A stretch of 64,000 nt of DNA from a virus. Positions 1,038-28,007 of the stretch are shown in pieces. The stretch is from positions 1-64,000 of the IMG/VR virus record IMGVR_UViG_3300042541_003180. One strand, written 5' to 3'. The position numbers and the translations under genes are program-made. Numbering within the stretch: position 1 is the first letter of the stretch; each line of letters begins with the position of its first letter. Under the pieces are notes generated by a model, which was not told the origin of the DNA, searched no databases, and saw only the letters and a list, made by a program, of their open reading frames with translations.

Positions 1038-1385
1038 TTATGTTAATAGATCAATCTTTAAATCTCTTCGATTTTCTATTGAATCGTTTTCGGCTTTTTG
1101 TACAAACCAATCTCTAACTATATCTTCATCTGTTCTTTGATAATCCAGCCAACAATTCTCTTTTGTACTATACTTCATAAATGTACTAAGTTCTTCACTA
1201 GTATATTTCTTTAGTTTCATATCTTTAATACGATTACCTTCTAATGTGATAATTATTCCACTATCGGTTATGTCTAAAATACCTAACCAAAAGTTAAATC
1301 TTTCTTGAAAAATCATACCTTTTTTAAATAGTCCATTATAAACTATTTCATTTGTTTCATTAGTTATCTTTGAATAATCTGCCAT
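1038..1385 (-). CDS. hypothetical protein with C-terminal RDxK tag
   Basis: ORF coupled to the upstream gene; ends RRDLKIDLLT. Confidence 0.7.
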   Translation of the reverse strand: MADYSKITNETNEIVYNGLFKKGMIFQERFNFWLGILDITDSGIIITLEGNRIKDMKLKKYTSEELSTFMKYSTKENCWLDYQRTDEDIVRDWFVQKAENDSIENRRDLKIDLLT

Positions 1386-1759
1386 TATATACCAATTGAT
1401 TTAAGTTTGTCGTCTCTAATTTCTTTTTGTATATCTGATATATCAATAACATCTTTCAAAAGTTCAACAAGCTCGTCTCTTATATCAGTTCGTCTTTTTA
1501 AGAGTACATCACCACCAAGTGTGTTATAAACAAGGTTTTCATCCATTACACTATCACCACTTAAAGTAAACATTTTGTAAAATACATTATCAAATGTTCC
1601 TACACGTCTAGATAGTCTAGCCGCCTCAAAACTTTTTTTAATTTTGATGATTTGTTTTCTAACTTTAACAATTTTATCAATGTCTTTTCTTCGACCAAGT
1701 ATTTGGTCTATTAGTGTTCTACTAACTTCTGTGTGTTCCATATTTCCTAAATCTTCCAT
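1385..1759 (-). CDS. hypothetical protein with C-terminal RDxK tag
   Basis: ends IRDDKLKSIGI; TATATTTG just upstream. Confidence 0.7.
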   Translation of the reverse strand: MEDLGNMEHTEVSRTLIDQILGRRKDIDKIVKVRKQIIKIKKSFEAARLSRRVGTFDNVFYKMFTLSGDSVMDENLVYNTLGGDVLLKRRTDIRDELVELLKDVIDISDIQKEIRDDKLKSIGI

Positions 1760-1764
1760 ATGAA

Positions 1765-1772
1765 CAAATATA
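1765..1772 (-). promoter_or_regulatory. Bacteroidota-type -7 promoter element TAnnTTTG (TATATTTG)
   Basis: matches the Bacteroidota primary-sigma -7 consensus, 5 nt upstream of ATG 1759. Confidence 0.55.
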
Positions 1773-1783
1773 CAAAATAAAAA

Positions 1784-2170
1784 TTAAACTCCAATAGAAT
1801 TTAACTTTTCATTCCTAAGATAAGATGTAAGTTTTTCTGATAATAATTCAAATGCTTTTATTTCAAAATCTTCAAGTTTAGAAACTTTGTATCTTAGTGA
1901 ACTACCAGAATTTTTATTTGAAAGAAGTTCTTGGTAAATCTGTACCATTTCTTCTTCTGTTGGTTCTATATCTTCTTTGAAGTTAGAAAAATCTAATTGA
2001 GAAATATGTGCACTTTTGTGATGTAAATCCTGTGTTAGTTCTGCTGATATTTTACCTGATAATCTAATAAATTGATTCCTCGAATGTTCATAAAAAATTG
2101 CTGTTAAAGTGTTTTTAATTGATTCTTGTTGATAAGTAATCTTGCAATTGATTAGAGTGGAGTTTGTCAT
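1784..2170 (-). CDS. hypothetical protein with C-terminal tag
   Basis: ends LRNEKLNSIGV. Confidence 0.7.
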   Translation of the reverse strand: MTNSTLINCKITYQQESIKNTLTAIFYEHSRNQFIRLSGKISAELTQDLHHKSAHISQLDFSNFKEDIEPTEEEMVQIYQELLSNKNSGSSLRYKVSKLEDFEIKAFELLSEKLTSYLRNEKLNSIGV

Positions 2171-2208
2171 TTTATAAGTTTATTTTATATATTTGATAAT
2201 TTTTTTCT

Positions 2209-2676
2209 TTAAATTTTAACAAAAATAAAGGTATAGTATTTACGATTATTAGAGTTTGTATGTATGGCTAAACCAAAGTTAGTAAAATCTCCTTCAATTA
2301 TTTTTTTGTGTCCTGGTGAACTTAACCAAGCATTTAAAACAGATTGTGGATTACTATAATTATAAGCTAGAACTTCACCTACATGTTCCGCATGTAATGT
2401 TTTAATTAGGTTATCTGATCTTTGTTCAAAATGATCATGTGTCATTGTACCTTGTTCAATCATATAAATATTGTGTTCTTTACATATATATCCAATGTGT
2501 TCAATAGTTTTTAAAGTATCTAGTCCTATTTGATTTCTATAAACATTAGTAACATTCATTACTGCATTTTCTTGCTGACTGAAATTATAAGGATATTGTG
2601 TATATTTTTGATCTTGTGATTTTGAGCAAGATATAAGTAATAATGATATAAAAAATAGAATTATTTTTATTTTCAT
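2209..2676 (-). CDS. CAP/SCP-domain lipoprotein
   Basis: signal peptide with lipobox LISC; NxYR..GL, H..YM, GEVLA, WLSSPGHKKII, F..FG motifs. Confidence 0.85.
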   Translation of the reverse strand: MKIKIILFFISLLLISCSKSQDQKYTQYPYNFSQQENAVMNVTNVYRNQIGLDTLKTIEHIGYICKEHNIYMIEQGTMTHDHFEQRSDNLIKTLHAEHVGEVLAYNYSNPQSVLNAWLSSPGHKKIIEGDFTNFGLAIHTNSNNRKYYTFIFVKI

Positions 2677-2697
2677 TATTTATATATTAAAAGAGTA

Positions 2698-2970
2698 TTA
2701 TTCCTCTTTTAATATATTTTTTAATGTTTCTTCTCTTTTAGTTGATAATTCCCAAGCTAAGTAATCTTCTTCGGACATTAGTTCAGACTCTTTAAAAAGA
2801 CGAGCATTTGAGGTTCTCCAATGTGATGATATGTTATCACACATATACTCACAATCATATTGATTTTCTGTATCTGGTTCATCCAGATTTGCTTCTAAAT
2901 AACGTTGTATAGACATTTTACCATAAGACTTATGGTAAACGGGTTGGCTAAGGTCAAATTTATTTCTCAT
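2698..2970 (-). CDS. hypothetical protein with C-terminal tag
   Basis: ends KREETLKNILKEE; TAACTTTG upstream. Confidence 0.65.
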   Translation of the reverse strand: MRNKFDLSQPVYHKSYGKMSIQRYLEANLDEPDTENQYDCEYMCDNISSHWRTSNARLFKESELMSEEDYLAWELSTKREETLKNILKEE

Positions 2971-2974
2971 ACTA

Positions 2975-2982
2975 CAAAGTTA
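2975..2982 (-). promoter_or_regulatory. TAnnTTTG element (TAACTTTG)
   Basis: 4 nt upstream of ATG 2970. Confidence 0.55.
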
Positions 2983-2993
2983 CATTTAATTTT

Positions 2994-3002
2994 TAATATA
3001 TA
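2994..3002 (+). promoter_or_regulatory. putative late promoter TAATATATA
   Basis: recurrent motif upstream of structural and N-tagged genes. Confidence 0.55.
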
Positions 3003-3021
3003 CAAAAAAGTAATTTTTATA

Positions 3022-3717
3022 ATGAGATTTATACAAAAGTTTAAAATATTTGAATCTACACAAGATTTACCAGAAAAGGGTACTAAGTGGATCAATGATA
3101 AAGGTGAAAAGATATTTATATTGAGACCAGATCAATATGGTTATATTGGTTATTATAACTTATCCGATCCAGAATATAAGAGACATATTAGTCCAGAAAC
3201 ATTTTATAACGAGTATAAACCATTAGATAAACATATTTATAGAGACGATATTGAGTTTGATTTTGATAAAGCTACTTATTTATCAGATGAGAAAGCTATC
3301 ATTGCTGCTTATTTCATAACTAAAGAAAATGAAAAGTCTATTGAAATTCTAAATATAAAAGAATTTGCTGCTGATACGGCCACTTTTATGGATAATGCCA
3401 GACCTTATTCAGTTACTTTCCACAAAGGTACTTTACCGACTTCACAAATTGCTATTTTAGGAGAAGTTCCTGAAAAAGAAGGTTTCTTCTATGTTAAAGT
3501 TCCTTATTGGTTATACAAAGAAAACCCAGAGTTGAATATTAAAAGAATAGTTGGTGATTATCATCATATGAAAAGATTAGATCTTAGAGATTTTAGTTTA
3601 AGTAATAAAGAATTGATGTCTAATTTCAAAGATCCTAATGTAATTAAATACTTTGCTAGTTCTGATAAAGATAAGAGAACTCAACAACAAGTAATAAATT
3701 ACGGAAGACGTAGTTAA
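3022..3717 (+). CDS. hypothetical protein with N-terminal capsid-targeting-like tag (start revised from 2905)
   Basis: ATG 3022 follows TAATATATA and gives MRFIQKFKIFES; this start avoids overlap with 2698..2970. Confidence 0.7.
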   Translation: MRFIQKFKIFESTQDLPEKGTKWINDKGEKIFILRPDQYGYIGYYNLSDPEYKRHISPETFYNEYKPLDKHIYRDDIEFDFDKATYLSDEKAIIAAYFITKENEKSIEILNIKEFAADTATFMDNARPYSVTFHKGTLPTSQIAILGEVPEKEGFFYVKVPYWLYKENPELNIKRIVGDYHHMKRLDLRDFSLSNKELMSNFKDPNVIKYFASSDKDKRTQQQVINYGRRS

Positions 3718-3968
3718 ATACCTAAATCATTTAATTTTTGATCTCTAATTTCTGAAACAAATAAACTATTAAAGGTTCCTTTTTCAGACCATACACGATC
3801 ATTTCTTGTATGAATTTTATTTTCAGTTTTTATAACACTATAGTAAATTTTAACCCAAGGTTTTCTTTCACTACTATAATCATCTATAACATTAATTATA
3901 ATTCTGTGATTTTTCTCAAGTTTAGTTAAATAATCTTTTACAATTATTTCTTTATTTTTTTCTGTCAT
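3714..3968 (-). CDS. hypothetical protein with C-terminal tag
   Basis: ends IRDQKLNDLGI; overlaps the DHFR stop. Confidence 0.65.
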   Translation of the reverse strand: MTEKNKEIIVKDYLTKLEKNHRIIINVIDDYSSERKPWVKIYYSVIKTENKIHTRNDRVWSEKGTFNSLFVSEIRDQKLNDLGI

Positions 3969-4434
3969 ATGTTAAGTAAGTAAAGTCATACTTATGTCTT
4001 TCATCTGATGGATGATATTCTTCTGAAACTAATTCCCATTCTTCACCAATTTCTGGAAAGAAAGTATCTGCTTCAAAATCTGAATGTACTCTTGTTAGTT
4101 CAATTCTATCTGCAATTCCCATAGATTGTTTATAGATTTCTCCACCACCAATTATCCAAATATCTTGATTGTCTGTAAAATCAATTGCTGATTGAATTGC
4201 ATCAAATACAAAACAATTTTCAGGTACTGAATAGTTATCTTGTCGAGTTATAATAAGGTGTTTTCTATTAGGTAGAGGTTTAGGGAACGTTTCAAACGTC
4301 TTTCTACCCATAAGTATATAATTACCTGATGTAAGTTCTTTAAATCTTTTAAAATCGTCTGGTAAGTGCCAAACTAAGTCATTGTCTTTACCTAAAGAAT
4401 TGTTTTCTCCGGCTGCTGCTATAATTGTTATCAT
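3952..4434 (-). CDS. folA: dihydrofolate reductase
   Basis: IIAA..N..LG.DNDLVWHLPDDFKRFK, MGRKTFE, PLPNR, IIGGGEIY, ADTFFP. Confidence 0.97.
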   Translation of the reverse strand: MITIIAAAGENNSLGKDNDLVWHLPDDFKRFKELTSGNYILMGRKTFETFPKPLPNRKHLIITRQDNYSVPENCFVFDAIQSAIDFTDNQDIWIIGGGEIYKQSMGIADRIELTRVHSDFEADTFFPEIGEEWELVSEEYHPSDERHKYDFTYLTYDRKK

Positions 4435-4463
4435 AAACTTTTTATGAAAAAAAATTAAAAAGT

Positions 4464-5861
4464 TTAACTACATTCATAACAAGAAACTCTACCGTCTCCC
4501 CCGCATTCTTGACATTCAGTTGTTCCATCTCCATCACATCTTGTACATTCTTCAAGTCCGCGACCACTACAATCATCACACTCTACTTTACAATTACCAT
4601 CGCATTTAGGACATTCTACTTGACCATCTTCACAATTATCACAAGGTATTTTACCAGAACCTTCACAATTATCACAAGATGAACCTTCAAACTCACCACT
4701 TGCATCACACTGAGGACAATCTATTTTAGCATAACCATCACACTGATTACAATCTACTGTTCCATCTCCATCACATCTACCACAATCATACTCACCATAC
4801 CCATCACACTCAGAACATTCTTGTTCTCCATTACCATCACATTTCCAACATCTGTATTCAGCAGAACCACCACAGTCTTCACATTCCCTGCTACCTGTAC
4901 CACCACATTCTGAGCAAGAACCATCACCACCTTCAGTATCAGTTAGTTCATATTCATATGAATCTGACCAGTTGTTTGTTAGTAAACTAGAGTGAGGAGT
5001 GTAATACTTTATCGTATCCATATAAGGATATTTACTAAAATCTCCACCGTGGTCTAAAGTAATATAAATCCAACTATCTTCTCTAGTTAATTCTTGTCCG
5101 TTAAACATAATTGGATCACCTGTTTGATAAGTTTGATTTTTCTTATAATAGAACCCATTATCGATTGCAAAATCTATAAATAGTTGAGTATCTGCAGAAT
5201 CTTGTATATAGATTCTGTCCATAAATTGTCTATCTTTGTTATCTAACCAAAGAAGAGCTCTACCGGTAATTTTAGTATCATCTGTTTTAGATTTTAAGAT
5301 TATTAAAGAACATCTTTCAGGATTACTAGAGTATATTTCTAAGAAGTCTCTACATTTTGAGTATCTCATACAAGAAGATCCTAATGTTCCCATTTCTCTT
5401 TCGTATTGACTATGATTATACCAATGTTTAATATCATTACCTTTAACTATTTCGAATCTTGTAAAAGCTTCTTTCTCAACTAAAATCGCGGCTTTATATT
5501 TATTTACAAAGTCTTCTAATTCTTTATTATCAACTTCACGACCGGCTTTAGTTAGAATTGCTCTTACAAATCTACCGACATTCATATCAGATTTTTTTAA
5601 TGTGTAAGGATCATCAACTTTTTTAGCTTTATCGTCTGGAATAAAGAAAACCTTATCTTCTTTTTCTAAATCAAATGTTATATAGTTATAGTTTGTATCA
5701 ACGTCTATACCATTTAACATTCTTAGATTTCTAGAAACAGGTGTATTTATTCTTTTAAGTAGGTTATTAAACTTGTCATCAAAAACAATTTTAGCTTCTA
5801 ACAACATTTGTATATCTTTTTCTAAAAGATACTCTTCGTATTTTGATAATTTATTCTTCAT
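4464..5861 (-). CDS. uncharacterised phage protein (SCM / GRAxLW / MDRIY / PYMDT domain) with 14 C-terminal CxxCxGxG zinc-finger repeats; paralogue 1 of 3
   Basis: motifs shared with 14736..16166 and 16220..17614; DnaJ-type Cys repeats. Confidence 0.8.
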   Translation of the reverse strand: MKNKLSKYEEYLLEKDIQMLLEAKIVFDDKFNNLLKRINTPVSRNLRMLNGIDVDTNYNYITFDLEKEDKVFFIPDDKAKKVDDPYTLKKSDMNVGRFVRAILTKAGREVDNKELEDFVNKYKAAILVEKEAFTRFEIVKGNDIKHWYNHSQYEREMGTLGSSCMRYSKCRDFLEIYSSNPERCSLIILKSKTDDTKITGRALLWLDNKDRQFMDRIYIQDSADTQLFIDFAIDNGFYYKKNQTYQTGDPIMFNGQELTREDSWIYITLDHGGDFSKYPYMDTIKYYTPHSSLLTNNWSDSYEYELTDTEGGDGSCSECGGTGSRECEDCGGSAEYRCWKCDGNGEQECSECDGYGEYDCGRCDGDGTVDCNQCDGYAKIDCPQCDASGEFEGSSCDNCEGSGKIPCDNCEDGQVECPKCDGNCKVECDDCSGRGLEECTRCDGDGTTECQECGGDGRVSCYECS

Positions 5862-5895
5862 ATTACTATATATTATTTTTTTGTGCTGAAAAACT

Positions 5896-9752: not shown

Positions 9753-10148
9753 TTAAATTATCTCTTCAATTTTCTTATCTCTTAATTCTGCTGTAGATAA
9801 AATTTCTTGTACAAAGATATGAAAATATTTTGTATTATTAATTAAATCTAATGTAATATTTGTATGTGAACCCATACCATTTGTGTTTGATGATAATATT
9901 GGTTGAATATGTCTATCAGTGCCCCAATATTTGGAACCAGGTGGTGAATAATATTCTCCATTTGGATTAGATGTACTTTCCCAATGTTCTATTATAAATG
10001 ATTTGCTTTCTGTTTGTTCAGGATCACATTCATATAGAATCGTATATTGTCCATTATCATAGTTTACATTTAAAAGTTTACTATAAGCAGGAACTACAAA
10101 TGTAGCTTGATTATAGCTAATATATTGTGATTGTGTTCTTATTATCAT
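9753..10148 (-). CDS. hypothetical protein with C-terminal tag
   Basis: ends LRDKKIEEII. Confidence 0.7.
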   Translation of the reverse strand: MIIRTQSQYISYNQATFVVPAYSKLLNVNYDNGQYTILYECDPEQTESKSFIIEHWESTSNPNGEYYSPPGSKYWGTDRHIQPILSSNTNGMGSHTNITLDLINNTKYFHIFVQEILSTAELRDKKIEEII

Positions 10149-10510
10149 ATTCCTAATTTAGTTAGTATTTTATCTCTATAGAAACTTATATCATCAACTA
10201 TAAAAAGGTTTGAATCCGTAATAATTAGATTATCAATAATCTCAATAATTTTTGATGTTGTTCTTAATGACATAGTTCCTACATTTTTATTACTTGTAAC
10301 GATTTGATTAATTTCTAATAAATCAACCTCTGCATTTTCTGTATTAACAATACCTTTACATTTTTGTATAGAATATTTATCTACAAATTCTTTATTATCT
10401 AGTATTTTTTTATAGTATTTATTTTCCATATCTACCATAACATAAGAAACCTCGGTAGATTTCCCACCGAGGTGATTATGAATTAAATCTCCTACTTTAA
10501 CTAATTTCAT
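10145..10510 (-). CDS. hypothetical protein with C-terminal tag
   Basis: ends YRDKILTKLGI. Confidence 0.7.
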   Translation of the reverse strand: MKLVKVGDLIHNHLGGKSTEVSYVMVDMENKYYKKILDNKEFVDKYSIQKCKGIVNTENAEVDLLEINQIVTSNKNVGTMSLRTTSKIIEIIDNLIITDSNLFIVDDISFYRDKILTKLGI

Positions 10511-11349
10511 TACAATATTGAAAGTCCTGGTTTAGAACTAATTATTGATAAATTTACATTACCATCCACATCGTAAAAACCTGGCATAATCATCGCTGTA
10601 GACTCAACACCCATCATTTTAACAGGTTTTAAGTTAGTAACAAACAAAACCGTTTTACCGGTTAACATATCTACGTAGTTCTCACCTAATGTAGGTTTAA
10701 TGTTTGTAACAACGGTTCTTAGTGTATCTTCTCCGAAATCAACTTCTAACTTAATAAGTTTATCTGATTTAGGTACGTCTGTTACACTTGTAATTGTACC
10801 TGGTTTAATTTCTAATTTAGATGAAATATCTAAAAACTCACTGAATTCAATTTTATCTTTCATGTTTAATATATTTATTGCTTTAATTTTACATTCTTCT
10901 TTTAGTCCTGGTATTCCTAATTTCCAGGGTTTTACTGGTTCTCCTGTTGAACAATTTACAAAATAATCTTGTTGCTCATCTAAGAAGTCTTGTATATCAT
11001 CTAAGATAACATATTGATTTACTTCTGGATGTCTATCTAACCAAAGTTTAATTTCGTGACCTCTTTTTACTTGGTCATAATAAATTATATCGGTTGCTTC
11101 ACATACATCTACACAATCTGGTGTTACATCAATAATTTCACCTGGTAGATTACGTTCTTTCCAAAGTGCCAACATTCGTTCTATTCCTTTATCTTTCCAA
11201 GTTGAAGAGATAACGATTTTTGCTCCTGTTTTTTCGATAACTTCCTTTAAATTCTGTACATATTCATCCCTGAAGATATGACCAAATTGGTCTCTATCTG
11301 CATAATCTACGTTTAAAACTCCATCAATGTCCAGAAATATCGTTTTCAT
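10510..11349 (-). CDS. HAD phosphatase (Swiss-army-knife RNA-repair type) fused to a Trbp111/CsaA-like tRNA-binding OB domain
   Basis: IFLDIDGVLN, VISSTW, RGHEI..WL, YVILDD; then DKLIKLEVDFG..RTVV, NLKPVKMMGVES.AMI. Confidence 0.8.
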   Translation of the reverse strand: MKTIFLDIDGVLNVDYADRDQFGHIFRDEYVQNLKEVIEKTGAKIVISSTWKDKGIERMLALWKERNLPGEIIDVTPDCVDVCEATDIIYYDQVKRGHEIKLWLDRHPEVNQYVILDDIQDFLDEQQDYFVNCSTGEPVKPWKLGIPGLKEECKIKAINILNMKDKIEFSEFLDISSKLEIKPGTITSVTDVPKSDKLIKLEVDFGEDTLRTVVTNIKPTLGENYVDMLTGKTVLFVTNLKPVKMMGVESTAMIMPGFYDVDGNVNLSIISSKPGLSIL

Positions 11350-11366: not shown

Positions 11367-11609
11367 TTAATTTTGATTTATTAAAAGAATTTTTTGATTT
11401 CTTGTTAGTTGTTTAATTCTCCATTCTTCTTTTGCTGCCAAAGATTTTGTTTCAAAAGATTGTTGATAAACTAATTTTACTGGAGTTCTAGTCTTGGTGT
11501 ACTTTGCTCCTTTCTTCTTATTATGCGTATCAATTCTCTTTTCTACGTCATTACTGATGCCGGTATAAAGGGTCAAATCACTACACTCTAAAATATAAAC
11601 ATACCACAT
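11367..11609 (-). CDS. small GIY-YIG nuclease (YhbQ/UPF0213-like)
   Basis: WYVYILEC.D.TLYTGI..D..KR...HN..KGAKYT..R.P. Confidence 0.9.
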   Translation of the reverse strand: MWYVYILECSDLTLYTGISNDVEKRIDTHNKKKGAKYTKTRTPVKLVYQQSFETKSLAAKEEWRIKQLTRNQKILLINQN

Positions 11610-12842: not shown

Positions 12843-13208
12843 ATGGAAATTATACAACGACATGGCATTGCCTTTAAAGTAATAGAAAGAAAGATGAATT
12901 TCCCTTTCATCACTGATTGTGATGATATGTTATGTGAAGATGTGAGTTCATTTTATTCAGATCCAAACACACAATCTATTGTTTTAATTAGAGATAACTA
13001 TTCTAAACCTATTATGACTTATCAAGATATTCTTGACGAGATAGAGTATCTATATGATAATAGTATTCGTTGGAGAAGTGAGCAAACAAGAGATAGTTTA
13101 AGAACTTACTATCATAAGATCTCTAATATAATGAAAACTTATAAAAGACAAGAACAAATAAATAAAGTATTAAATAGTAACGAATGTACATTATATCTAG
13201 CATGTTAA
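12843..13208 (+). CDS. hypothetical protein with near-C-terminal tag
   Basis: KRQEQINKVL near the C-terminus. Confidence 0.65.
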   Translation: MEIIQRHGIAFKVIERKMNFPFITDCDDMLCEDVSSFYSDPNTQSIVLIRDNYSKPIMTYQDILDEIEYLYDNSIRWRSEQTRDSLRTYYHKISNIMKTYKRQEQINKVLNSNECTLYLAC

Positions 13209-13708
13209 AAAACAAATTATACTTATTTGATAAGTGGTTATCTAAAGATAGAAATACATTATTAATTCTATTATTTGTTGCTACCTCAACTATTATGATA
13301 CAATTTAAACCTTTTACCTTCTATGGTATTGGTTTACTTTCACTTATATGTTTCTATATAGTTTTTGTAAAAGCAAAGATTTTGGGTGGTCAGTGGAAAT
13401 TAGATAAATCAGTATATCATGTGCCACAAAAAGATGAAATTATAGTGACAACTAAAGACTTTTATTGGGATGGTTCATTAAAAAGTTATCATGTTCAAAG
13501 TCATACAAGTAAACCTAATACAGTTTTCATTGAGAAAGGTACAGAATTAAAAATTATACATCTAAAAGAAACCGATGATGATTGGTCTTTGATGTTAAAG
13601 AAAGGCAATGGTGAGATAATCATTACAGTAAATTATTTAGAGTCGAAAGATTACTATAAAACAAAGTCTCAAATAAGAGAAGATAAATTAAAGAAATTAT
13701 TAAAATAA
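13184..13708 (+). CDS. membrane protein (2 TM) with C-terminal tag
   Basis: two N-terminal hydrophobic segments; ends IREDKLKKLLK. Confidence 0.7.
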   Translation: MYIISSMLKNKLYLFDKWLSKDRNTLLILLFVATSTIMIQFKPFTFYGIGLLSLICFYIVFVKAKILGGQWKLDKSVYHVPQKDEIIVTTKDFYWDGSLKSYHVQSHTSKPNTVFIEKGTELKIIHLKETDDDWSLMLKKGNGEIIITVNYLESKDYYKTKSQIREDKLKKLLK

Positions 13709-13714: not shown

Positions 13715-14425
13715 ATGGTAAAATTACTACCCGCAACATTTAGATGGGTTCCTAAAGTAGATGATATAATTAAAATAGCAGGAATACATCCAAGTCGTGT
13801 ATTTAATGTTTATATTTTTGGTTCACAAGTATATGGTACTTATGATGCAAATTCTGACTGGGATATTATAATGGTAGCAAATAACTCGGTTGAAGCAGTT
13901 GAGTTAAATAAAACAGTTAAAGATGAATATTCATATAATTTACAAACTCGTAATATAAGATATAACATTCATGTTTATACACCAGATAGATTTCAAAAAG
14001 ATTTAGAGTGGCATCGTATGAATAACCTTGAATGTATCTTTGCACCAGAGTGGGCTATCTTAAAAGAAGATAAAAAATTTGATTTTCAGATAAACTTACC
14101 TAAGTTAAGACACGCAACTTCACACGTTAGTTCTAACTCATGGATAAAGTGTAAGAAAAAATTATTGATTGAAGGTGAGTATCGTACTGCGATAAAATCA
14201 TTCTTTCATTCAATTAGAATACCTATGTTTGCATCACAAATTGCACGAAGTGGTAAAATTACTGACTTTACTGCGGCTAATTTTATTTGGAATAGATTAA
14301 TATTTCAAGCATTACCTGCTTATCAAAGAAAGGATTCTAAATGGGATTGGAATTCTTTGAATCTAGAATTCAAAATAACATATAATCTTATGTTAAGTTT
14401 GTTCAGAAAAGTAACTACAAAATAA
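13715..14425 (+). CDS. Pol-beta-superfamily nucleotidyltransferase
   Basis: FGSQVYGT....SDWDII motif. Confidence 0.8.
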   Translation: MVKLLPATFRWVPKVDDIIKIAGIHPSRVFNVYIFGSQVYGTYDANSDWDIIMVANNSVEAVELNKTVKDEYSYNLQTRNIRYNIHVYTPDRFQKDLEWHRMNNLECIFAPEWAILKEDKKFDFQINLPKLRHATSHVSSNSWIKCKKKLLIEGEYRTAIKSFFHSIRIPMFASQIARSGKITDFTAANFIWNRLIFQALPAYQRKDSKWDWNSLNLEFKITYNLMLSLFRKVTTK

Positions 14426-14661
14426 TGGATGAAGAATTAGAGAAATTATATCAAGAGTTAATTAACAATCGAATAAATTATAGAGGTCAAGGTTTGGTAC
14501 AAGTTAGCCCACCACACCCACATCAAAATTTGATTGCTAATCCATTAATAGCTAATTATGATTTTACTTCTTTATATCCTTCTATTCAGAAGAGTTATTA
14601 TAAGATCAAACAAATTATTAGAAAAAGAAAAATACAAAGAATGTTTCAAAACCCATCTTAA
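14425..14661 (+). CDS. small protein carrying a family-B DNA polymerase motif-A peptide and a C-terminal tag
   Basis: YDFTSLYPSI, then IRKRKIQRMF. Confidence 0.55.
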   Translation: MDEELEKLYQELINNRINYRGQGLVQVSPPHPHQNLIANPLIANYDFTSLYPSIQKSYYKIKQIIRKRKIQRMFQNPS

Positions 14662-14735: not shown

Positions 14736-16166
14736 ATGTTAAAAAAATATATTGATTTTATAACAGAATCACATGATTTAATAACAGAATCTCAGTTGAT
14801 TGAAATGCTTTTAGAATCTGATGTTATGTTTTCTGATAACTTTAAGAAAGTATTAGGTAAAATAGACAATCCAGTTGCGAAAAAGATTTTAGGTTTAGAG
14901 AAAAAAGATTTACCAGTAGTGGCTAACTACTTTGATATAGATCCAAAAAGAAATGACTATGTTTATTTCACTCCAGATAGAAAAGCTCAAGAAATTTTAA
15001 ATGATCCAAAAGAATTATATCGTTTTGTAGGAAATAATGGTGGTTGGTTAACACATGGTGAAGCAAATAATGCAATTTTTGGTATATTAGGATATGTTCC
15101 ACAAGGTGATGTTTATAGACCTGATTCAACAGAAGTAGGAGAAGTTGTTGAAAAGATAGTTTCTGAAAAGTCTGGTAAAACTTGGATTTGGTTAAAATTT
15201 GCAAATGGACAAGGAGTTTTTAACTTAGAAAAATTGAGACCAGTAGATGATAGAAGTAAGTTAGTTTGGTCAAAAAATCGTCAAGATGTTAGAGTTGGTA
15301 GATCAATGAATGCTCTTTTGACTTTAGCTGCTAAAGATGATGATACTGCTAAGTTTAATGCGAGAGATATTGAAATATTTGTTAATTTATATAAAGCTCA
15401 AATAGATAAATTTAATGATAAGTTCTCTTTCTTTGAAGAAGTTAAGGGTAGAAGAATATATGATAAGTATCAATATGATAATTACTATGATGCGAGTGGA
15501 TCATTAGCTAACTCTTGTATGGCAGAAGCTGATTCGAGTTGGTTAGAACCATATACAGATAATATTGATACTGTTTCATTAGTTATTTTTAAAGCTACAG
15601 AAGATGAAGATATGATTATTGGTCGTGCTATTCTTTGGGAAACTTTAGATGGTAAAAAGGTAATGGATAGAATCTACACAAATAATGATTCTGATGTTGA
15701 ATTGTTTAGACAATATGCACAAGAAAATGGTTGGTGGTATAAATCAAACAATAATAGTGCTGCAAGAATCGAAGGTATTGGACCAGAAGGTCAAGATCAA
15801 AATCTATCTATTGACGTTCAATTGAAAAAAGATCATGAGAATTTCCCTTATATGGATACTCTGAAGTATTATTATCCAGCAACTGGAATTATAACAAATT
15901 CTAGAAAACCTAAAGGTTTCTTTTATTATTTAGAAGATACTGGTGGAGAATGGAGTCATTCAGATTGTAAAACTTGTGATGATAGTGAAGTTATGAAATG
16001 TCCTACTTGTAATGGAGATGGAGAAGAAGTTTGTATTGAATGTAATGGTGACGGAGAAATTGATGGTCAACAATGTTCAACTTGTGGTGGAGAAGGTAAG
16101 AAAACTTGTTCAAAATGTGATGGTGATGAGGAAGTAGCTTGTACAGACTGTGAAGAATATAGATAA
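14736..16166 (+). CDS. SCM / GRAxLW / MDRIY / PYMDT-domain protein with 6 CxxC repeats; paralogue 2
   Basis: MLKKYIDFITES...; GSLANSCM, GRAILW, MDRIY, FPYMDT; TAATATATA at 14706..14714. Confidence 0.8.
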   Translation: MLKKYIDFITESHDLITESQLIEMLLESDVMFSDNFKKVLGKIDNPVAKKILGLEKKDLPVVANYFDIDPKRNDYVYFTPDRKAQEILNDPKELYRFVGNNGGWLTHGEANNAIFGILGYVPQGDVYRPDSTEVGEVVEKIVSEKSGKTWIWLKFANGQGVFNLEKLRPVDDRSKLVWSKNRQDVRVGRSMNALLTLAAKDDDTAKFNARDIEIFVNLYKAQIDKFNDKFSFFEEVKGRRIYDKYQYDNYYDASGSLANSCMAEADSSWLEPYTDNIDTVSLVIFKATEDEDMIIGRAILWETLDGKKVMDRIYTNNDSDVELFRQYAQENGWWYKSNNNSAARIEGIGPEGQDQNLSIDVQLKKDHENFPYMDTLKYYYPATGIITNSRKPKGFFYYLEDTGGEWSHSDCKTCDDSEVMKCPTCNGDGEEVCIECNGDGEIDGQQCSTCGGEGKKTCSKCDGDEEVACTDCEEYR

Positions 16167-16219: not shown

Positions 16220-17614
16220 ATGATTACAAACTACTACGATTATATAACAGAAAGTAAATTACAATTACTCTTAGAAGCTAAAATAGTATTTACTACTAAT
16301 TTTATGGAGGTCTTAGATAAAATAGAATCTCCTATAGCAAAAAAACTTATTTCACTTAGAGGTGAAGATAAAGATATTGATAGAAACTTTATTGATATTA
16401 ATAAAGAAAAGATAGATAGTGTTTTCTTTAAACCACAAGATAAAATAGATAAAGTAAAATATAAGATTTTAAATAAAGGATCTGTTTATGATAATTTATC
16501 TAAGGCTGCAAAAGGAATCATAAACAGGTTTGCTGAACCTAGAAATGGTGAACAAGGTATAATTACAAGAACAATGACTGTTGATGAATTAAATGAAATA
16601 TCACCTAGTGGTGTTTGGAGATATATGTATGATAATAGTGATGTTATGGTTGTTTTTCAATTTGGTTCAGGAAAGGATATTTTTGATGTACTTACACCTA
16701 AAAGTAATTTAACACCAGACTATGCTTCGATAAGAAGTACTGATGTAAATGTTGGTAGATTTGTTAGAGCGTTTTTGACAAAACTAGGTGAGAAGTTTAC
16801 AGATATAGAAATTGAAAGTTTTGTTGATCAATATAAGAAAGTAATGCAGATGAAAACAGATATATTTTCAAGATTTAAAGAAGTTAAAGGTGAAGATATA
16901 AAACATTGTTATTTAGTGGATAATTATGAATCAGAATCCGGTTCTTTAGGTGGTTCTTGTATGCGTCACAGTAGATGTCAAGATTATTTTGATATTTATG
17001 TTAATAATCCTGATAAGGTATCGTTGGTTATTTTATTAAGTGAACAAGATTCTTCAAAAATCGCAGGAAGAGCCATTCTTTGGCTAGATGATAATGATAG
17101 ACGAATTATGGATAGAATCTATATAATTAGAACTGCTGATATACTTTTATTTACAGAGTATTGTGATTCGAAAGGTTATCTTCATAAAGAAAGTCAAACT
17201 TATAGTTCAACCACACCACTTGTTGAAAATGGTATTGAATTGGATGAACATGATTCAAAAGTAGTTATTACTTTAAAGAAAGGTGAGTATAGTCCTTATC
17301 CTTATATGGACACGATGAAATATTATAGTCCAGAAACTGGAGTAATATCTAATCGTTATATTAGAACTGCAAATGGTTGTGTTGAACTAACTGATACTGA
17401 TGGTGGTCCTCATGAAGGATGTGATATATGTGATGGTAGCGGTCGAGTTGATTGTCCAGAGTGTGAGGGTAGAGAAGAAATAGATTGTACTAATTGTGAT
17501 GGATCGGGTGGAGATGCTAGTGGTGAAGCTTGTAGTGTGTGTCAAGGTGGTGGCATGGTTCGTTGTGATATATGTGATGGTAACGGTCGAGTTGATTGTC
17601 CAGAATGTAGTTAA
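16220..17614 (+). CDS. SCM / GRAxLW / MDRIY / PYMDT-domain protein with 6 CxxC repeats; paralogue 3
   Basis: MITNYYDYITES; GSLGGSCMR, GRAILW, MDRIY, YPYMDT; TAATATATA at 16207..16215. Confidence 0.8.
   Translation: MITNYYDYITESKLQLLLEAKIVFTTNFMEVLDKIESPIAKKLISLRGEDKDIDRNFIDINKEKIDSVFFKPQDKIDKVKYKILNKGSVYDNLSKAAKGIINRFAEPRNGEQGIITRTMTVDELNEISPSGVWRYMYDNSDVMVVFQFGSGKDIFDVLTPKSNLTPDYASIRSTDVNVGRFVRAFLTKLGEKFTDIEIESFVDQYKKVMQMKTDIFSRFKEVKGEDIKHCYLVDNYESESGSLGGSCMRHSRCQDYFDIYVNNPDKVSLVILLSEQDSSKIAGRAILWLDDNDRRIMDRIYIIRTADILLFTEYCDSKGYLHKESQTYSSTTPLVENGIELDEHDSKVVITLKKGEYSPYPYMDTMKYYSPETGVISNRYIRTANGCVELTDTDGGPHEGCDICDGSGRVDCPECEGREEIDCTNCDGSGGDASGEACSVCQGGGMVRCDICDGNGRVDCPECS
17420..17608 (+). 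repeat. 45-bp direct repeat (17420..17464 and 17564..17608, 2 mismatches) in the zinc-finger region
   Basis: tgtgatatatgtgatggta(g/a)cggtcgagttgattgtccaga(g/a)tgt. Confidence 0.85.
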
Positions 17615-17646: not shown

Positions 17647-18387
17647 TTATTTCTTTAAGATTTCTTTTGTATAGTAATCATCAAATCCATCAAGATAAGT
17701 AGAAATTGGTTTTGTTTTATCAGTAATAATAATTTCATCAATAAATCCAAAATCTAACGCTTCTTGTGAGTTTAACCATTTGTCTCTTCTTGCACTTTCA
17801 AGTACATAATCAAAATCTCTACCACTATTCTCTGCAAGCATCTTGAATAAGATATAGTTATATTTTTCTGATTCCATTTGGGAGATACGATTATCTTCAA
17901 CGTGTCCTGATGCACCAGAAGAAACTTGGTGAATCATTACTTTGGAAAAGTTCAAAGAAGAACGTTTTCCTTTAGTTCCTGATGATAAAAGAATAGAACC
18001 CATAGAAGCAGCCATACCAGTATTGATTGTGGCTACGTCAGAGTTGATATATCTCATTACGTCAACCATACCTAATCCAGCTAAAACTGAACCACCCGGT
18101 GAATCAACGTGCATTGTAATATCTTTTGTCTCAACTGAGTCTAAATACATTAATTGAGCTTGAACTACAGTTGACATTTGTGTATTTACTACACCGGCAA
18201 CCCATAATATACGGTCCCGCATAAGTCTACTAAAAATGTCCATCTGCGTTACTCTCATTTCTCTTTCTTCAAGAATGTAAGGTGTCATACTATTTTCTAG
18301 TAATCCTTTCTCGAAGTAATGTAGGTTCATAGAAGAAATACCTTCACTTAAAGCGTATTTTTTAAAATCTTTTCCAAAATCTGTCAT
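17647..18387 (-). CDS. clpP: ATP-dependent Clp protease proteolytic subunit
   Basis: TPYILEER..MDIFSRLM.DRI, DSPGG, GMAASMG (catalytic Ser), MIHQ (His), RDKWL (Asp). Confidence 0.95.
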   Translation of the reverse strand: MTDFGKDFKKYALSEGISSMNLHYFEKGLLENSMTPYILEEREMRVTQMDIFSRLMRDRILWVAGVVNTQMSTVVQAQLMYLDSVETKDITMHVDSPGGSVLAGLGMVDVMRYINSDVATINTGMAASMGSILLSSGTKGKRSSLNFSKVMIHQVSSGASGHVEDNRISQMESEKYNYILFKMLAENSGRDFDYVLESARRDKWLNSQEALDFGFIDEIIITDKTKPISTYLDGFDDYYTKEILKK

Positions 18388-19109: not shown

Positions 19110-19619
19110 ATGTTAGACATTGGTAAAACAAATCTTTTCTTAAATGATAAAGCTAAATATGTTGTTAGTAAACTAATAGACGATTATGATCTTATGGGTC
19201 ATAATTGTTTGTTTTTAACTCATAAGAATGACACACTACAACTTAAATGTGCTTCTTGTACTTATACTACTTATGATTCAATACCAGATATTTTATCTGA
19301 GAATTTATTTAGAGTGGATATTATTATTGTTGAGTCAAATAGAAAATTTAATTTTTTACTTGATTCTATAAGAGAAGTAACAGATTTACCAGTTATTATA
19401 GTTACTGATGATTTGTCATACGATTATCCAGATTATAAATTTGATTATATTTATAAACTTGAAAGAGATAGAACTTTTTCATTAAGTATGGATAAATTTG
19501 AAGAAGACTTTTTAAATAACTCACATATTAGTGATATTAAAAATAACTGGAATATGTCATTAGCAGGTTTAAGAACACAATACATTAGAGATAAAAAAAT
19601 TAACGATTTATTAAAATAA
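19110..19619 (+). CDS. hypothetical protein with C-terminal tag
   Basis: ends IRDKKINDLLK. Confidence 0.7.
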   Translation: MLDIGKTNLFLNDKAKYVVSKLIDDYDLMGHNCLFLTHKNDTLQLKCASCTYTTYDSIPDILSENLFRVDIIIVESNRKFNFLLDSIREVTDLPVIIVTDDLSYDYPDYKFDYIYKLERDRTFSLSMDKFEEDFLNNSHISDIKNNWNMSLAGLRTQYIRDKKINDLLK

Positions 19620-19622: not shown

Positions 19623-20051
19623 ATGAAAGCACACGTAATTGTAAAAAAAGGTTATGAGTATGATGATAATATCTACTCAGAATCAGAGAGTGGTGGAGGA
19701 AGCCCAGAGTTGATTTGTTTCTCAAAAGAAGATGCAGAAACAAAGGTAAATGAATTAAATAAACAGGAGTTTAGAACAACTTCACTTAGTTATTATTCAT
19801 ATGATTTAGGTGATATATTAGATGTTGATGTTGACGAGTATCAGAAATTCAATGAATCTTTAGTTGAAAAGTATGGACCAATTAAAAAAGTTGGTTGGGG
19901 AGATACAGAAAACATTCTTCATCCCGATGCAAATGATGAAGAAACTGAACAATATATGAAGATGGTTTGTATAAGTTTTTATGAAGTAAAAGCTACAGAC
20001 ATTGATGTTCAAAGTTTTAGAGATTATAAAATTGATGAAGTTTTAAAATAA
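19623..20051 (+). CDS. hypothetical acidic protein with C-terminal tag
   Basis: ends FRDYKIDEVLK. Confidence 0.7.
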   Translation: MKAHVIVKKGYEYDDNIYSESESGGGSPELICFSKEDAETKVNELNKQEFRTTSLSYYSYDLGDILDVDVDEYQKFNESLVEKYGPIKKVGWGDTENILHPDANDEETEQYMKMVCISFYEVKATDIDVQSFRDYKIDEVLK

Positions 20052-21014: not shown

Positions 21015-22247
21015 ATGGATAATATAAATCTAATAGAGTCTTTTTCAGAGTTAAAAGACGTTAAAAACATTGATAAAGAATCAATGATTAAAGTAATGCA
21101 AGAAGTTTTCAAAACTATTATTGTTAAAAAATATGGTTCATCTGAAAATTTTGATATTATTGTGAATCCTAATAAAGGAGATTTAGAAATTTGGAGAAAT
21201 AGACTTGTTGTTGATGACAGTTATGATGAATTTGATGAAAATTTTCATATTAAATTTACTGATGTAAATAGAATCGAAGATGGATTTGAAGTTGGTGAAG
21301 AATTTGCTGATGAAATTAAAATTGTTGATTTTGGTAGACGTTCAATTTCATCAATTCGTCAAGTACTTAAATCTAAAATTATGGATTTAGGTAAAGAATC
21401 TTTGTACAAAAAATATAAAGATAGAGAAGGTGAAATTTTCACTTGTGAAGTTTACCAAATTTTAAGAAAAGAAGTTATCGTAACTGATGATGAAGGTAAT
21501 GAATTTGTTTTACCTAAAACAGAACAAATTCCAGGTGATTTCTTTAGAAAAGGTGATTCAATTAGAGCTATGTTACAAAGTGTCTCTATTGAAAATGGTA
21601 AACTTTATATGATTTTATCAAGAACTTCTAACAAGTTCTTAGAAAAATTATTTGAACTTGAGATACCTGAGGTATTTGACGGTTTAATTACAGTTAAAGC
21701 TGTTGTTAGAGAACCTGGTTCTAAAGCAAAAGTTGCAGTTGAGTCTTATGATGATAGAATTGATCCTGTTGGAACTTGTGTAGGTGTTAAAGGAAGTAGA
21801 ATTCACTCTATCGTAAGAGAGTTAAATAACGAAAACATTGATGTTATTACTTATACTACTAATAAATCGTTATACATAATGAGGGCATTAGGACAAAGTA
21901 AACCAAATGCTGAGATAAATGAAGAAAATAAAACCGCAAGTGTTATTATTCCTTCTGATACCATGTCTTTAGCAATTGGTAAAGGTGGTTTAAACATTAA
22001 ATTGGCTAGTAAATTGACTGGATACAAAATAAATGTATTCTCTGACGTTGACCATAATGAAGATGTCTTATTAGAAGATTTCTCAGATGAAATTGACGGT
22101 TGGATTATTGATGAACTTAAAAAGGTTGGTTATGATACAGCTAAAAGTGTTTTAAAGGCGGACTTTAATTTACTTGTTAAACAAACAGATTTAGAAGAAG
22201 AAACAATAAGAGAAGTTGTTAAGATTTTAAAATCTGAATTTGAATAA
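21015..22247 (+). CDS. nusA: transcription termination/antitermination factor NusA
   Basis: N-terminal domain + S1 + KH; LSRT...FL..LF.LEIPEV, REPG.KAKVAV, DPVG.CVG.KGSRI, LAIGKGG.N.KLA; Bacteroidota-type C-terminus. Confidence 0.95.
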   Translation: MDNINLIESFSELKDVKNIDKESMIKVMQEVFKTIIVKKYGSSENFDIIVNPNKGDLEIWRNRLVVDDSYDEFDENFHIKFTDVNRIEDGFEVGEEFADEIKIVDFGRRSISSIRQVLKSKIMDLGKESLYKKYKDREGEIFTCEVYQILRKEVIVTDDEGNEFVLPKTEQIPGDFFRKGDSIRAMLQSVSIENGKLYMILSRTSNKFLEKLFELEIPEVFDGLITVKAVVREPGSKAKVAVESYDDRIDPVGTCVGVKGSRIHSIVRELNNENIDVITYTTNKSLYIMRALGQSKPNAEINEENKTASVIIPSDTMSLAIGKGGLNIKLASKLTGYKINVFSDVDHNEDVLLEDFSDEIDGWIIDELKKVGYDTAKSVLKADFNLLVKQTDLEEETIREVVKILKSEFE

Positions 22248-23231: not shown

Positions 23232-23282
23232 TTAGTATATATTTTAAATAACAACTCCTAAAAATAATTTAATATAATTAAA

Positions 23283-24463: not shown

Positions 24464-24503
24464 TATCTAAAAACAAAGATTAATTTTTACTATATATAAA
24501 ATT

Positions 24504-25847: not shown

Positions 25848-25869
25848 TTGAACATTTGATTTTTTTCAC

Positions 25870-25877
25870 TATATTTG
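25870..25877 (+). promoter_or_regulatory. TAnnTTTG element (TATATTTG)
   Basis: heads the 25897-28007 operon. Confidence 0.5.
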
Positions 25878-25896
25878 TAAAAATTATATAATAGAA

Positions 25897-27051
25897 ATGA
25901 AAGAACAATTACTAAAACTTATAAATGAAAGATCTCCTGGTGCTATACCACTTTTCTTGGTGGTTAGAGGTTCACATGCTTATGGAACTAACATAGAGAC
26001 ATCCGATACTGACTTTGCAGGTGTATTTATACAACCAATGGATGATATTATGGGGTTTAAATATAAACAACAAATAAATGATGATAATAATGATATTGTA
26101 ATCTATGAGATACGTAGATTTTTAGAATTGTTGGCTAGTAATAATCCAACAGTTTTGGAATTGCTTAATACTCCAGAAGATTGTATTATTTATAAAGATC
26201 CTATTTTTGATTTGATATTGGAAGATAGAGACCAATTTATTACTAAAATCTGTGCAAACTCTTTTGGTGGTTATGCTAGAGCTCAAATTGGTAAAGCTAA
26301 AGGTCAAAACAAGAAACAAAACTGGGAGAAAGATAAAGTAGTTCGTAAAGACTTACTTGACTTCTGTTATGTTATTGATGGTGAGAAAACAATACCTTTT
26401 AAGAAATCGAAATATGGTTCTGATTACAAAGGTGATTTCTTACATAAACTATTTGGTAGGAAATATGATATAAGAATGTTTGGATTAACAAATGTTCCAC
26501 ATGCTAAAGACGTTTATGCGGTTTACTACAATGATAAACCAGGTTTTTACAAAGGACTTGTAAAAGTAGGTGATGAAGGTTTAGAAACACCTAATTTAGG
26601 TATTTCAAATCAGTTAAGATTGTCTTCTATACCAAAAGGTGAAGTCTCATTGTGTAACATTATTTATAATAAAGATGGTTACTCTGAACACTGTAAAGAC
26701 TTTAGAGAATATGAAGAATGGTTAGAAAAGAGAAATCTTCAAAGATGGGTTGATGTTAAGTCACACGGTCAACAAATTGACGGGAAAAACATGTTACATT
26801 GTCGTAGATTGATGGACATGGCTCGTGAAATTGCAGAGGGTAAGGGTATACTTGTTAGAAGATCAAATGCTCAAGAGCTTCTTGCAATTAGAAGAGGTGA
26901 GGTAGATTTACAAACTTTGATTGACCACGTTGAAAGTGAGATTAAAGAAGTAGATACTTTGTTTAAAGAATCAAATTTACCGGAAAAGGTAGATGAAAAA
27001 TTTATAAATAGTTTATTAGTAAAAATTAGAAAATCAGTATATGGTATATAG
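25897..27051 (+). CDS. nucleotidyltransferase (YcgL/RlaP-like, Pol-beta superfamily)
   Basis: GSHAYGT....SDTD..GVF, NP..LELL, SF.GYA..Q, K...H..RL, L..IR.G. Confidence 0.85.
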   Translation: MKEQLLKLINERSPGAIPLFLVVRGSHAYGTNIETSDTDFAGVFIQPMDDIMGFKYKQQINDDNNDIVIYEIRRFLELLASNNPTVLELLNTPEDCIIYKDPIFDLILEDRDQFITKICANSFGGYARAQIGKAKGQNKKQNWEKDKVVRKDLLDFCYVIDGEKTIPFKKSKYGSDYKGDFLHKLFGRKYDIRMFGLTNVPHAKDVYAVYYNDKPGFYKGLVKVGDEGLETPNLGISNQLRLSSIPKGEVSLCNIIYNKDGYSEHCKDFREYEEWLEKRNLQRWVDVKSHGQQIDGKNMLHCRRLMDMAREIAEGKGILVRRSNAQELLAIRRGEVDLQTLIDHVESEIKEVDTLFKESNLPEKVDEKFINSLLVKIRKSVYGI

Positions 27052-27673
27052 TAACGCTACGATTATAGCAATTATTTTAGGTTTCTTTGCATTAGGTTAT
27101 TTATTTAATAATCTTTTAAGAAAGATTCTTGATGTTTATAATGAAAAAAATTATAAAAAAGAAATAAATGATATTTTTCAAGGAATATTGGATAATATTT
27201 ACACACATAAGACGAGTTTTAATAGCCGTATCAATAATACTGTTAGTGTTATGACTGAATTAGAGAATCTTGGTTCGATAAATATTGTTTATTTGATGGA
27301 TAGAAAGGATATTGCGGTATTTAAAGGAGATAAATGTATTTATACATCTGATTCTGCTGAAAAGACTTTAGTGGAGGAAATTATTATGGGTGTAGAAATT
27401 TTTTATAAGCATGAAATCAATGATGTTGTAAATGTGATGGGAATGGTTTTTTCTCGTGATGAATTTGAGAAAAAGTTTGGTGTTAAAGTAGAGGATATAA
27501 AGAAAGGTAATTTCAGAGGGTTGAAAGAAGAAATGTCTGATATTGAAAAAATCAAAAAAAGAAATTCGGTTAAATTCAATATAGATGAAATATTAGATAG
27601 AATTAGTTCTGTTGGTATAGAAAATCTTACACCAGAAGAAAGAAACTTCTTAGATAATTATAATAATGAATAA
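27041..27673 (+). CDS. N-terminal TM protein with C-terminal DUF6576-like helical motif
   Basis: TM helix; ends IDEILDRISSVGIENLTPEERNFLD. Confidence 0.7.
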   Translation: MVYSNATIIAIILGFFALGYLFNNLLRKILDVYNEKNYKKEINDIFQGILDNIYTHKTSFNSRINNTVSVMTELENLGSINIVYLMDRKDIAVFKGDKCIYTSDSAEKTLVEEIIMGVEIFYKHEINDVVNVMGMVFSRDEFEKKFGVKVEDIKKGNFRGLKEEMSDIEKIKKRNSVKFNIDEILDRISSVGIENLTPEERNFLDNYNNE

Positions 27674-28007
27674 TCTTGAGTTAAATTCTTTTAGTTCAGA
27701 CTTTGGAGATTTTAAAATAGTTTCTATTTTAAGTGACTATAGTAATCACTGGGTATTGGGTTTAACATCTGTTATACTTGAGAAAGACGAATTATACTAT
27801 TACATTCAAGAAGAAAAAGAAAAGATTAGTGATGTTTCTAATATGCCACTTTATATTAAAGAAGATTGGATAAATTATAATAAACATGATTTAACTTTAG
27901 ATATTATCAATAAACATATTAAGTATTATAATAATGATGATGAAGATATGTTTAATTTATTAATGACGATACGTAGAGATTTTATTCTTAATAAGTATAT
28001 AAAATAA
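27666..28007 (+). CDS. hypothetical protein with C-terminal tag
   Basis: ends IRRDFILNKYIK. Confidence 0.65.
   Translation: MNNLELNSFSSDFGDFKIVSILSDYSNHWVLGLTSVILEKDELYYYIQEEKEKISDVSNMPLYIKEDWINYNKHDLTLDIINKHIKYYNNDDEDMFNLLMTIRRDFILNKYIK

Follow-up and report, generated by a model that had tools for sequence, protein, structure and literature searches.

Several systems are known in which a short peptide label is carried by otherwise unrelated proteins and read by one partner. The capsid targeting sequence (CTS) of phage T4 is an N-terminal peptide of about 10 residues found on the late proteins IPI-III and Alt; it is common to unrelated T4-type phage proteins, is sufficient as an address and has a single assembly partner as its reader; its cleavage takes place in the prohead. 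The ssrA tag, the MuA C-terminus, the SspB XB peptide and the SpoIIAB C-terminus are short C-terminal labels that connect diverse proteins to one machine. Clamp-binding tails (those of T4/RB69 gp43, gp33 and gp55, the PIP-box and the beta-clamp motif) likewise bring unrelated proteins to one hub by a short C-terminal peptide, and encapsulin cargo-loading peptides, about 10 residues long and placed at the C-termini of diverse cargo, bind an HK97-fold shell. In poxvirus ankyrin/PRANC F-box-like proteins, SOCS-box proteins and F-box proteins, variable target-binding bodies are joined to a short conserved C-terminal plug. Here, we describe a peptide tag shared by the C-termini of unrelated small proteins in the huge-phage record IMGVR_UViG_3300042541_003180, the first 64 kb of which are referred to as the window. 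We estimate at about 55% the probability that this tag acts as a portable address or docking helix at the C-terminus, with one conserved putative partner as its reader. A full-text literature search found no published description of it.

The record is a single contig of 85,311 bp with 28% G+C and 110 open reading frames (ORFs) amounting to 27,104 amino acids. CheckV places it at about 15% completeness, which makes it a fragment. Its T4-type large terminase (TerL) is 76% identical to that of the 634-kb huge phage LR745206 and 73% identical to that of the 642-kb LR756502, and the record is a piece of a phage closely related to these published genomes. Both were reported in a study in which the genomes above 634 kb were all assigned to the 'Mahaphage' clade, with predicted Bacteroidetes hosts (Al-Shayeb et al., 2020; PMC7162821). 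Three near-complete relatives served for comparison, G001 (476 kb, 641 ORFs), G002 (436 kb) and G003 (483 kb). Shine-Dalgarno-like motifs are found upstream of just 4 of the 110 genes in the record and 10 of 641 in a relative. At many operon heads in the window the ATG is preceded, at 12-30 nt, by TAnnTTTG, which forms the -7 element in Bacteroidetes promoters; the distance is often 12-13 nt, which implies very short leaders. The scarce Shine-Dalgarno-like motifs and the TAnnTTTG elements agree with the predicted host range, and a host in the Bacteroidetes is likely.

The tag was searched for with the strict pattern R[DEN].K[LI]..[LIV]. Ten matches were found among the 110 ORFs of the record, with the Arg at -9 to -11 in all ten, whereas 2000 within-protein permutations predict 0.79 matches genome-wide and 0.04 at C-termini. 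In G001 the pattern occurs 80 times compared to 3.6 in shuffles, and 59 of these matches fall within the last 14 residues compared to 0.14. The reversed motif gave 3 matches in the same genome, none of them C-terminal, and its 2409 shadow-frame ORFs gave 5. The tag is real, far beyond chance, and the preference for C-termini over internal positions and shuffles on which the original prediction depended holds in both genomes. About one gene in eight is tagged in the fragment and across its clade. The pattern match in 11367-11609 was read as a coincidence, since a GIY-YIG domain spans residues 1-73 of this 80-residue protein and overlaps it.

Thirteen carriers had been listed for the window. The C-terminal peptides quoted for them are present in the ORF translations, and nine carriers are solid. 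Those at 10145, 12843 and 14425 are better described as variants, and 27666-28007 is unsupported as a carrier because its homologue in G001 has a different C-terminal end. The twelve that stand, and one beyond the window, are:

1038..1385, minus strand: solid carrier of 115 residues, tag R-R-D-L-K-I-D-L-L-T at 1041-1067.
1385..1759, minus strand: solid carrier of 124 residues, tag I-R-D-D-K-L-K-S-I-G-I at 1388-1417, TAnnTTTG 13 nt before the ATG.
1784..2170, minus strand: solid carrier of 128 residues, tag L-R-N-E-K-L-N-S-I-G-V at 1787-1816; the G001 homologue, with a body 34% identical, is also tag-ended.
2698..2970, minus strand: carrier of 90 residues counted as solid, tag K-R-E-E-T-L-K-N-I-L-K-E-E at 2701-2736 (loose pattern, with T for K and three extra residues), TAnnTTTG 12 nt upstream.
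3714..3968, minus strand: solid carrier of 84 residues, tag I-R-D-Q-K-L-N-D-L-G-I at 3717-3746, co-directional with a DHFR-like gene at 3952-4434.
9753..10148, minus strand: solid carrier of 131 residues, tag L-R-D-K-K-I-E-E-I-I at 9756-9782, kept in 8 of 8 homologues from related loci.
10145..10510, minus strand: variant carrier of 121 residues, tag Y-R-D-K-I-L-T-K-L-G-I at 10148-10177, with one residue fewer between D and K.
12843..13208, plus strand: weak, extended carrier of 121 residues, K-R-Q-E-Q-I-N-K-V-L at 13146-13175 followed by 13 residues; the extended form is conserved in the orthologues of the close relatives L001-L010.
13184..13708, plus strand: solid carrier of 174 residues that has hydrophobic segments at its N-terminus, tag I-R-E-D-K-L-K-K-L-L-K at 13676-13705; the pattern is matched in 9 of 11 homologues, and R-S-K-V-L-N-K-L-G-I closes the orthologue in G001.
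14425..14661, plus strand: basic-form carrier of 78 residues, tag I-R-K-R-K-I-Q-R-M-F at 14620-14649 plus 4 residues; the basic form recurs beside the orthologous nucleotidyltransferase in relatives L010 and L024.
19110..19619, plus strand: solid carrier of 169 residues directly 3' of the M50 peptidase gene, tag I-R-D-K-K-I-N-D-L-L-K at 19587-19616, kept in 10 of 10 homologues.
19623..20051, plus strand: solid carrier of 142 residues, tag F-R-D-Y-K-I-D-E-V-L-K at 20019-20048.
74529-75038 of the record, minus strand: solid carrier beyond the window.

Pfam and PHROGs assigned no families to the carriers of the window. Two tag-ended mini-proteins resemble pieces of family-B DNA polymerase: the one at 14425-14661 (plus strand) contains a PolB motif-A-like D-x-x-S-L-Y-P-S, and another in a related contig (L143:9852-10469, minus strand) contains N-S-x-F-G and Y-x-D-T-D-S.

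Codons vary among copies of the tag, and codon use at each conserved position equals that of the whole genome, so the constraint acts on the peptide, as had been proposed from the differing codons. The motif pattern is kept in all of the at least 120 homologues listed for 19623..20051 while the variable positions change, and orthologue pairs with bodies 28-57% identical retain it. The tag could instead be a by-product of a nucleotide- or translation-level feature, such as coupling, termination or a recombination site, or a relic of common ancestry. Many tagged genes do overlap the next start codon, and the Arg keeps a preferred distance from the stop codon. However, sequences 3' of the stop codon are unrelated among tagged genes, tagged genes also end operons, the motif has internal copies, and its persistence in every listed homologue of one carrier is accompanied by bodies unrelated between carriers. 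Together with the codon usage, this makes such an origin extremely improbable.

The small carriers were said to be mutually unrelated and mostly beyond annotation, and this view is well supported. When the tag was removed from 95 of them, the remaining bodies formed 87 clusters by BLAST and 88 by phmmer. Pfam matches were obtained for just 7 of 149 carriers and belong to six different families, none of which covers the tag; a strongly hydrophobic segment was found in just 5 of 65. A single paralogous family with a conserved C-terminus was rejected in view of the 87 clusters and the different Pfam families and folds, even if some of the bodies may be remotely homologous. The domain boundaries are informative in this respect. 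DUF2158 is complete at residues 4-48 of a 76-residue carrier and Cse60 at residues 5-59 of an 80-residue carrier, the tag lying in an added C-terminal extension in both, and the body of an SH3-like carrier aligns to SH3 domains over residues 1-60 (Z 5-7) with the tag helix outside. Judged by these boundaries, the tag is a module appended to folds that are complete without it. In the densest array, 20 of 35 consecutive ORFs are tagged within a 10.9-kb stretch.

In a logo of 128 non-redundant tags, the information is limited to the stretch from -4 to +9 relative to the Arg, with the consensus [K/L/I/V]-[S/Q/E]-x-[I/L]-R-[D/E]-x-K-[I/L]-[N/K/D/E]-x-[I/L]-[L/G/F]-[K/I/N]. Most often, in 61 of 128 tags, the Arg stands at -10. 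Between 8 and 16 residues follow the Arg, 0-6 extra tail residues being tolerated, and a few internal copies are followed by polar linkers. The usual endings are L-G-I or I-L-K, and the final position is variable (K 26%, I 21%, N 16%, D 11%).

The short helix suggested by the original prediction was obtained in AlphaFold2 models of two carriers. The 142-residue protein 19623..20051 is modelled with an alpha/beta body and the tag as helix 129-141, with a predicted local distance difference test (pLDDT) score of 63-71 compared to about 79-96 over most of the body. In the 73-residue SH3-like carrier the tag forms helix 60-71 with pLDDT of about 90, and the final Gly-Ile lies outside the helix. 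The tag is thus predicted to be an alpha-helix of about 14 residues of the form [S/T/D cap]-x-x-hydrophobic-R-[D/E]-x-K-[I/L]-x-x-[I/L]-[L/G]-x. Its Arg, Lys and hydrophobic positions would share one face of the helical wheel, and the L-x-x-L-G-I ending seems to fit the pattern of a Gly C-cap.

One possibility is that this helix is intrinsic to its carriers, capping small domains or mediating oligomers with no dedicated reader. It follows directly after the last strand in the SH3-like family, where it is predicted with high confidence, and small phage proteins are often oligomeric. Against this, the DUF2158, Cse60 and SH3 folds need no helix for completion, an invariant Arg and Lys across at least 87 unrelated bodies are hard to square with packing on different surfaces, and the hydrophobic spacing of the logo loses heptad register beyond two turns. 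A structural or self-associating helix is therefore unlikely. Targeting to the membrane or nucleoid by an amphipathic helix, as in the membrane-targeting sequences of MinD and FtsA, would suit a short helix at the C-terminus, one face of which is basic and hydrophobic. It is very improbable for a tag whose hydrophobic residues number only 3-4, which is acidic at +1 and polar at +5 and +6 and whose net charge is about 0 to +2, and lipid binding would not require sequence-specific invariance of R and K.

Foldseek found no match in the PDB for the 142-residue carrier, and the tag profile had 0 matches among PDB sequences and none at E 0.001 among 1.84 billion representative proteins, the motif being too short. 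A word-seeded search with the profile returned only orthologues of the input carriers (E 0.02-7), and the tag segment gave only unnamed clusters with scores below 0.9 in the ESM Atlas. The likeness of the '..LGI' ending to HeH/SAP/Rho_N and HhH motifs was ruled out by visual inspection, the distance between R and L-G-I being off by one residue. Type IX secretion in Bacteroidetes combines an N-terminal signal peptide with a C-terminal beta-sandwich domain of 70-100 residues. The tag is helical and 10-14 residues long, no Pfam family covers it, few carriers contain a strongly hydrophobic segment, and the tag was not retained as a secretion signal of this type.

Clamp-binding peptides follow the consensus Q-x-x-[LIM]-x-x-[FY][FY] or Q-L-x-L-F, or form an acidic L-D-F-L-F-type tail. 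The phage does encode a T4-type clamp loader. However, the core of the tag logo, R-[DE]-x-K-[IL]-x-x-[IL]-[LG], contains no Gln or aromatic pair; the tag is basic and helical, whereas clamp-binding tails are acidic and aromatic or conform to Q-x-x-L-x-x-F-F. They also serve a handful of replication and transcription clients, compared to about 60 small uncharacterised proteins per genome here. The tag was therefore set apart from the clamp-binding motifs.

The tagged genes belong to a particular class of transcription unit. To classify units, co-directional genes were followed upstream to the nearest promoter-like motif. In G001, 48 genes with the C-terminal tag lie in TAnnTTTG units and 7 in TATATATA units, which agrees with the claim that most carriers belong to operons headed by TAnnTTTG. 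A second, N-terminal tag, M-[K/R]-Y-[L/I]-K-x-[F/Y]-E, is found on 46 proteins of G001, none of which also bears the C-terminal tag, and its genes are distributed the other way, with 4 in TAnnTTTG units and 40 in TATATATA units (Fisher p = 6e-16 compared to the C-tagged genes). The record of the window shows the same trend. From the type of motif we infer that TAnnTTTG marks early-type and TATATATA late-type expression. In the window, M-[K/R]-Y-[L/I]-K-x-[F/Y]-E-x-F opens about 20 unrelated proteins. Their genes lie downstream of TATATATA-type motifs, and the C-terminal tag is absent from all of these proteins. Window genes with this start include:

5910, 8034, 11697 and 40703.
28616, 33928, 36772, 37272, 49679, 50520, 51622 and 52216, minus strand.

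In a complete 309-kb relative without the C-terminal tag (G006), about 22 small proteins start with M-K-Y-I-I-T-E-S instead.

The promoter classes bear on whether the tag is a virion or capsid loading signal, that is, a C-terminal analogue of the T4 CTS or of encapsulin peptides. The phage does have a structural module of the T4 type, with TerL and a weak match to a gp19-like tail tube, and short portable peptides are known to load HK97-fold shells in T4 and in encapsulins. In contrast to the N-terminal, late T4 label, the tag is C-terminal and early-class, and it coexists with the separate CTS-like N-terminal tag described above, carried by late-class proteins; it was not classified as a T4-type CTS. 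The encapsulin peptides are extended, with a G-S-L core, and their cargo genes stand beside the shell gene. The tag is a helix whose logo contains no G-S-L core, and its carriers are encoded in early-type arrays, apart from the structural module and unlinked to the capsid gene, so that it was not placed with these peptides either. A role in capsid loading is thus very unlikely.

Proteolysis deserves closer attention because the original prediction pointed to ClpP, ClpS and an M50 peptidase encoded by the phage, and matches to all three were found. The two Clp genes of the window are:

17647..18387, minus strand: ClpP homologue (Pfam CLP_protease, E 6e-52), a candidate machine.
30189..30473, plus strand: ClpS homologue (PF02617, E 5e-21), adjoining TerL at 30500-32647 on the minus strand.

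The complete genomes add a ClpC-like unfoldase of 704-710 residues, 80-83% identical among the three. It has a UVR-like middle region and the V-G-F loop motif, which in ClpC docks ClpP, and lacks the N-domain; no Clp_N domain, stand-alone or otherwise, was found anywhere in the clade genomes searched. ClpS is 80-83% identical across the clade, with a late-type motif 16 nt upstream in G001. It is present in 5 of 5 records of the tag lineage and absent from 5 of 5 huge relatives that are tag-less where examined, and it is the only Clp component that tracks the tag lineage, in what is a single phylogenetic contrast. ClpS reads N-termini, and the ClpC-like protein of the clade offers no N-domain for it to bind. 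Like G006, three other huge relatives encode ClpP and an N-domain-less ClpC-like protein, and no tag was seen in about 20 kb around their clpP genes.

With ClpP, ClpS and a ClpC-like protein in the clade, a protease-linked reading is attractive. In its simplest form the tag would be a degron that marks its carriers for turnover by an AAA+ protease, either the phage ClpC-like/ClpP pair or one of the host, and early proteins would thereby be removed as a group. A single tag common to many substrates looks like a degron, it is terminal and on early-class genes, and the 710-residue unfoldase with its V-G-F loop and no N-domain is at hand. However, ssrA-type degrons rely on the last 2-3 residues and a free carboxylate, whereas the end of the tag is variable and extendable and its conserved feature is a helix face with Arg and Lys; the variation in the last residue and in tail length, and the internal copies, led us to reject an ssrA-type signal. 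In addition, the models give the tag as an ordered helix. In G001, clpP shares a transcription unit with tagged genes, so that it is not evidently expressed later than they are, and Clp genes also occur in tag-less relatives. We consider a degron unlikely.

The tag has a narrow distribution. It is present in the close relatives L001-L010 and in more distant low-GC contigs, on 59 of the 346 ORFs in a 200-kb sample of LR756502 (642 kb) and on 14 of 103 ORFs in 50 kb of LR745206 (634 kb). Positions 1-50000 of the 636-kb LR756504 contain a charge-flipped variant, [Y/H]-R-K-x-K-I-E-x-L, on 10 of 146 ORFs; R-K-x-K also occurs as a minor form in the window, at 14425-14661. No tag was seen in the first 50 kb of a 735-kb genome, in 100 kb of the cultured Tenacibaculum phage pT24 or in the 440 ORFs of G006. 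A degenerate DNA pattern for the L-G-I form matched 23 stretches in viral contigs, 20 of them in low-GC phage contigs that are rich in tags. Applied to 596 Gb of cellular genomes, it matched 21 stretches, compared to an estimated 26 or so by chance, and none lay in a tag array. Cellular matches at chance level indicate that the tag is phage-specific, and within the sequences searched it seems restricted to one clade of phages. Host mimicry was discarded on the same scan, in which no host protein that the tag could mimic was seen.

In the reading that we favour, the tag would have been appended during evolution to many unrelated small domains expressed from host-type, early-class promoters. One conserved partner or machine would recognise the helix face and so treat the 60 or so different small proteins of each genome as a single class. 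Specificity would come from the variable bodies, which most likely bind targets in the host or the phage, and the tag would connect these bodies to the common reader, which we presume to be a single one. Some observations weigh against this reading. A static docking site shared by dozens of proteins would set them in competition, which favours a transient reader (a protease, translocase or sorter) as a candidate. The pLDDT of about 90 for the helix of the SH3-like carrier is compatible with packing on its own body. The variable last residue, the 0-6 extra tail residues and the internal copies make a reader that needs a free carboxylate unlikely. The candidate machines do not track the tag either, since ClpP and the N-domain-less ClpC-like protein are present in tag-less G006 and the M50 peptidase has no BLAST homologue in tag-rich G001. 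G006 shares only 70 of 641 proteins with G001, and phyletic profiling for a reader leaves 156 candidates, a number too large to be of use.

That the reader of such a docking helix is the phage's own N-domain-less ClpC/ClpP protease is a guess, and we think it doubtful. Similarly speculative, and in our opinion not probable, is a library of at least 60 variable mini-binders per genome, plugged by the helix into a phage machine, e.g., the N-domain-less ClpC/ClpP. Its logic is the one we favour among the known systems, that of the PRANC, SOCS-box and F-box proteins, although these belong to eukaryotic ubiquitin-ligase systems, and have a plug of 40-50 residues and a known reader, and no sequence relation to the tag was found. 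If true, the library would be a counterpart, in a bacterial virus, of those adaptor libraries, by which chosen host proteins are destroyed or relocated early in infection, and the R-D-x-K and R-K-x-K lineage forms would co-evolve with the reader.

Huge Bacteroidetes phages include the largest known phage genomes, and most of their genes are unannotated. A single label on about 10-17% of the proteins unites hundreds of orphan genes in the same functional class. The tag peptide could be used as bait for its reader, and the charge-flipped form of the 636-kb phage offers a natural co-variation test. A reader that turns out to be a protease, translocase or compartment would reveal how these viruses organise host takeover, and a tag that proves portable might become a tool in Bacteroidetes.

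Some further genes of the window merit mention. No tubulin/PhuZ was found in the clade genomes searched for it. A CAP-domain protein with a hydrophobic, signal-like N-terminus (2209-2676, minus strand) lies behind a late-type motif within an early-type block. Three paralogues at 4464-5861 (minus strand), 14736-16166 (plus strand) and 16220-17614 (plus strand) have a common core and C-terminal C-x-x-C-x-G-x-G arrays that differ in length; all are behind late-type motifs, with up to 8 BLAST matches in G001. The window also encodes a fusion of a HAD domain (Swiss-army-knife RNA repair) with a tRNA-binding domain (10510-11349, minus strand), a full-length NusA homologue (21015-22247, plus strand) and an RlaP-type nucleotidyltransferase (25897-27051, plus strand).

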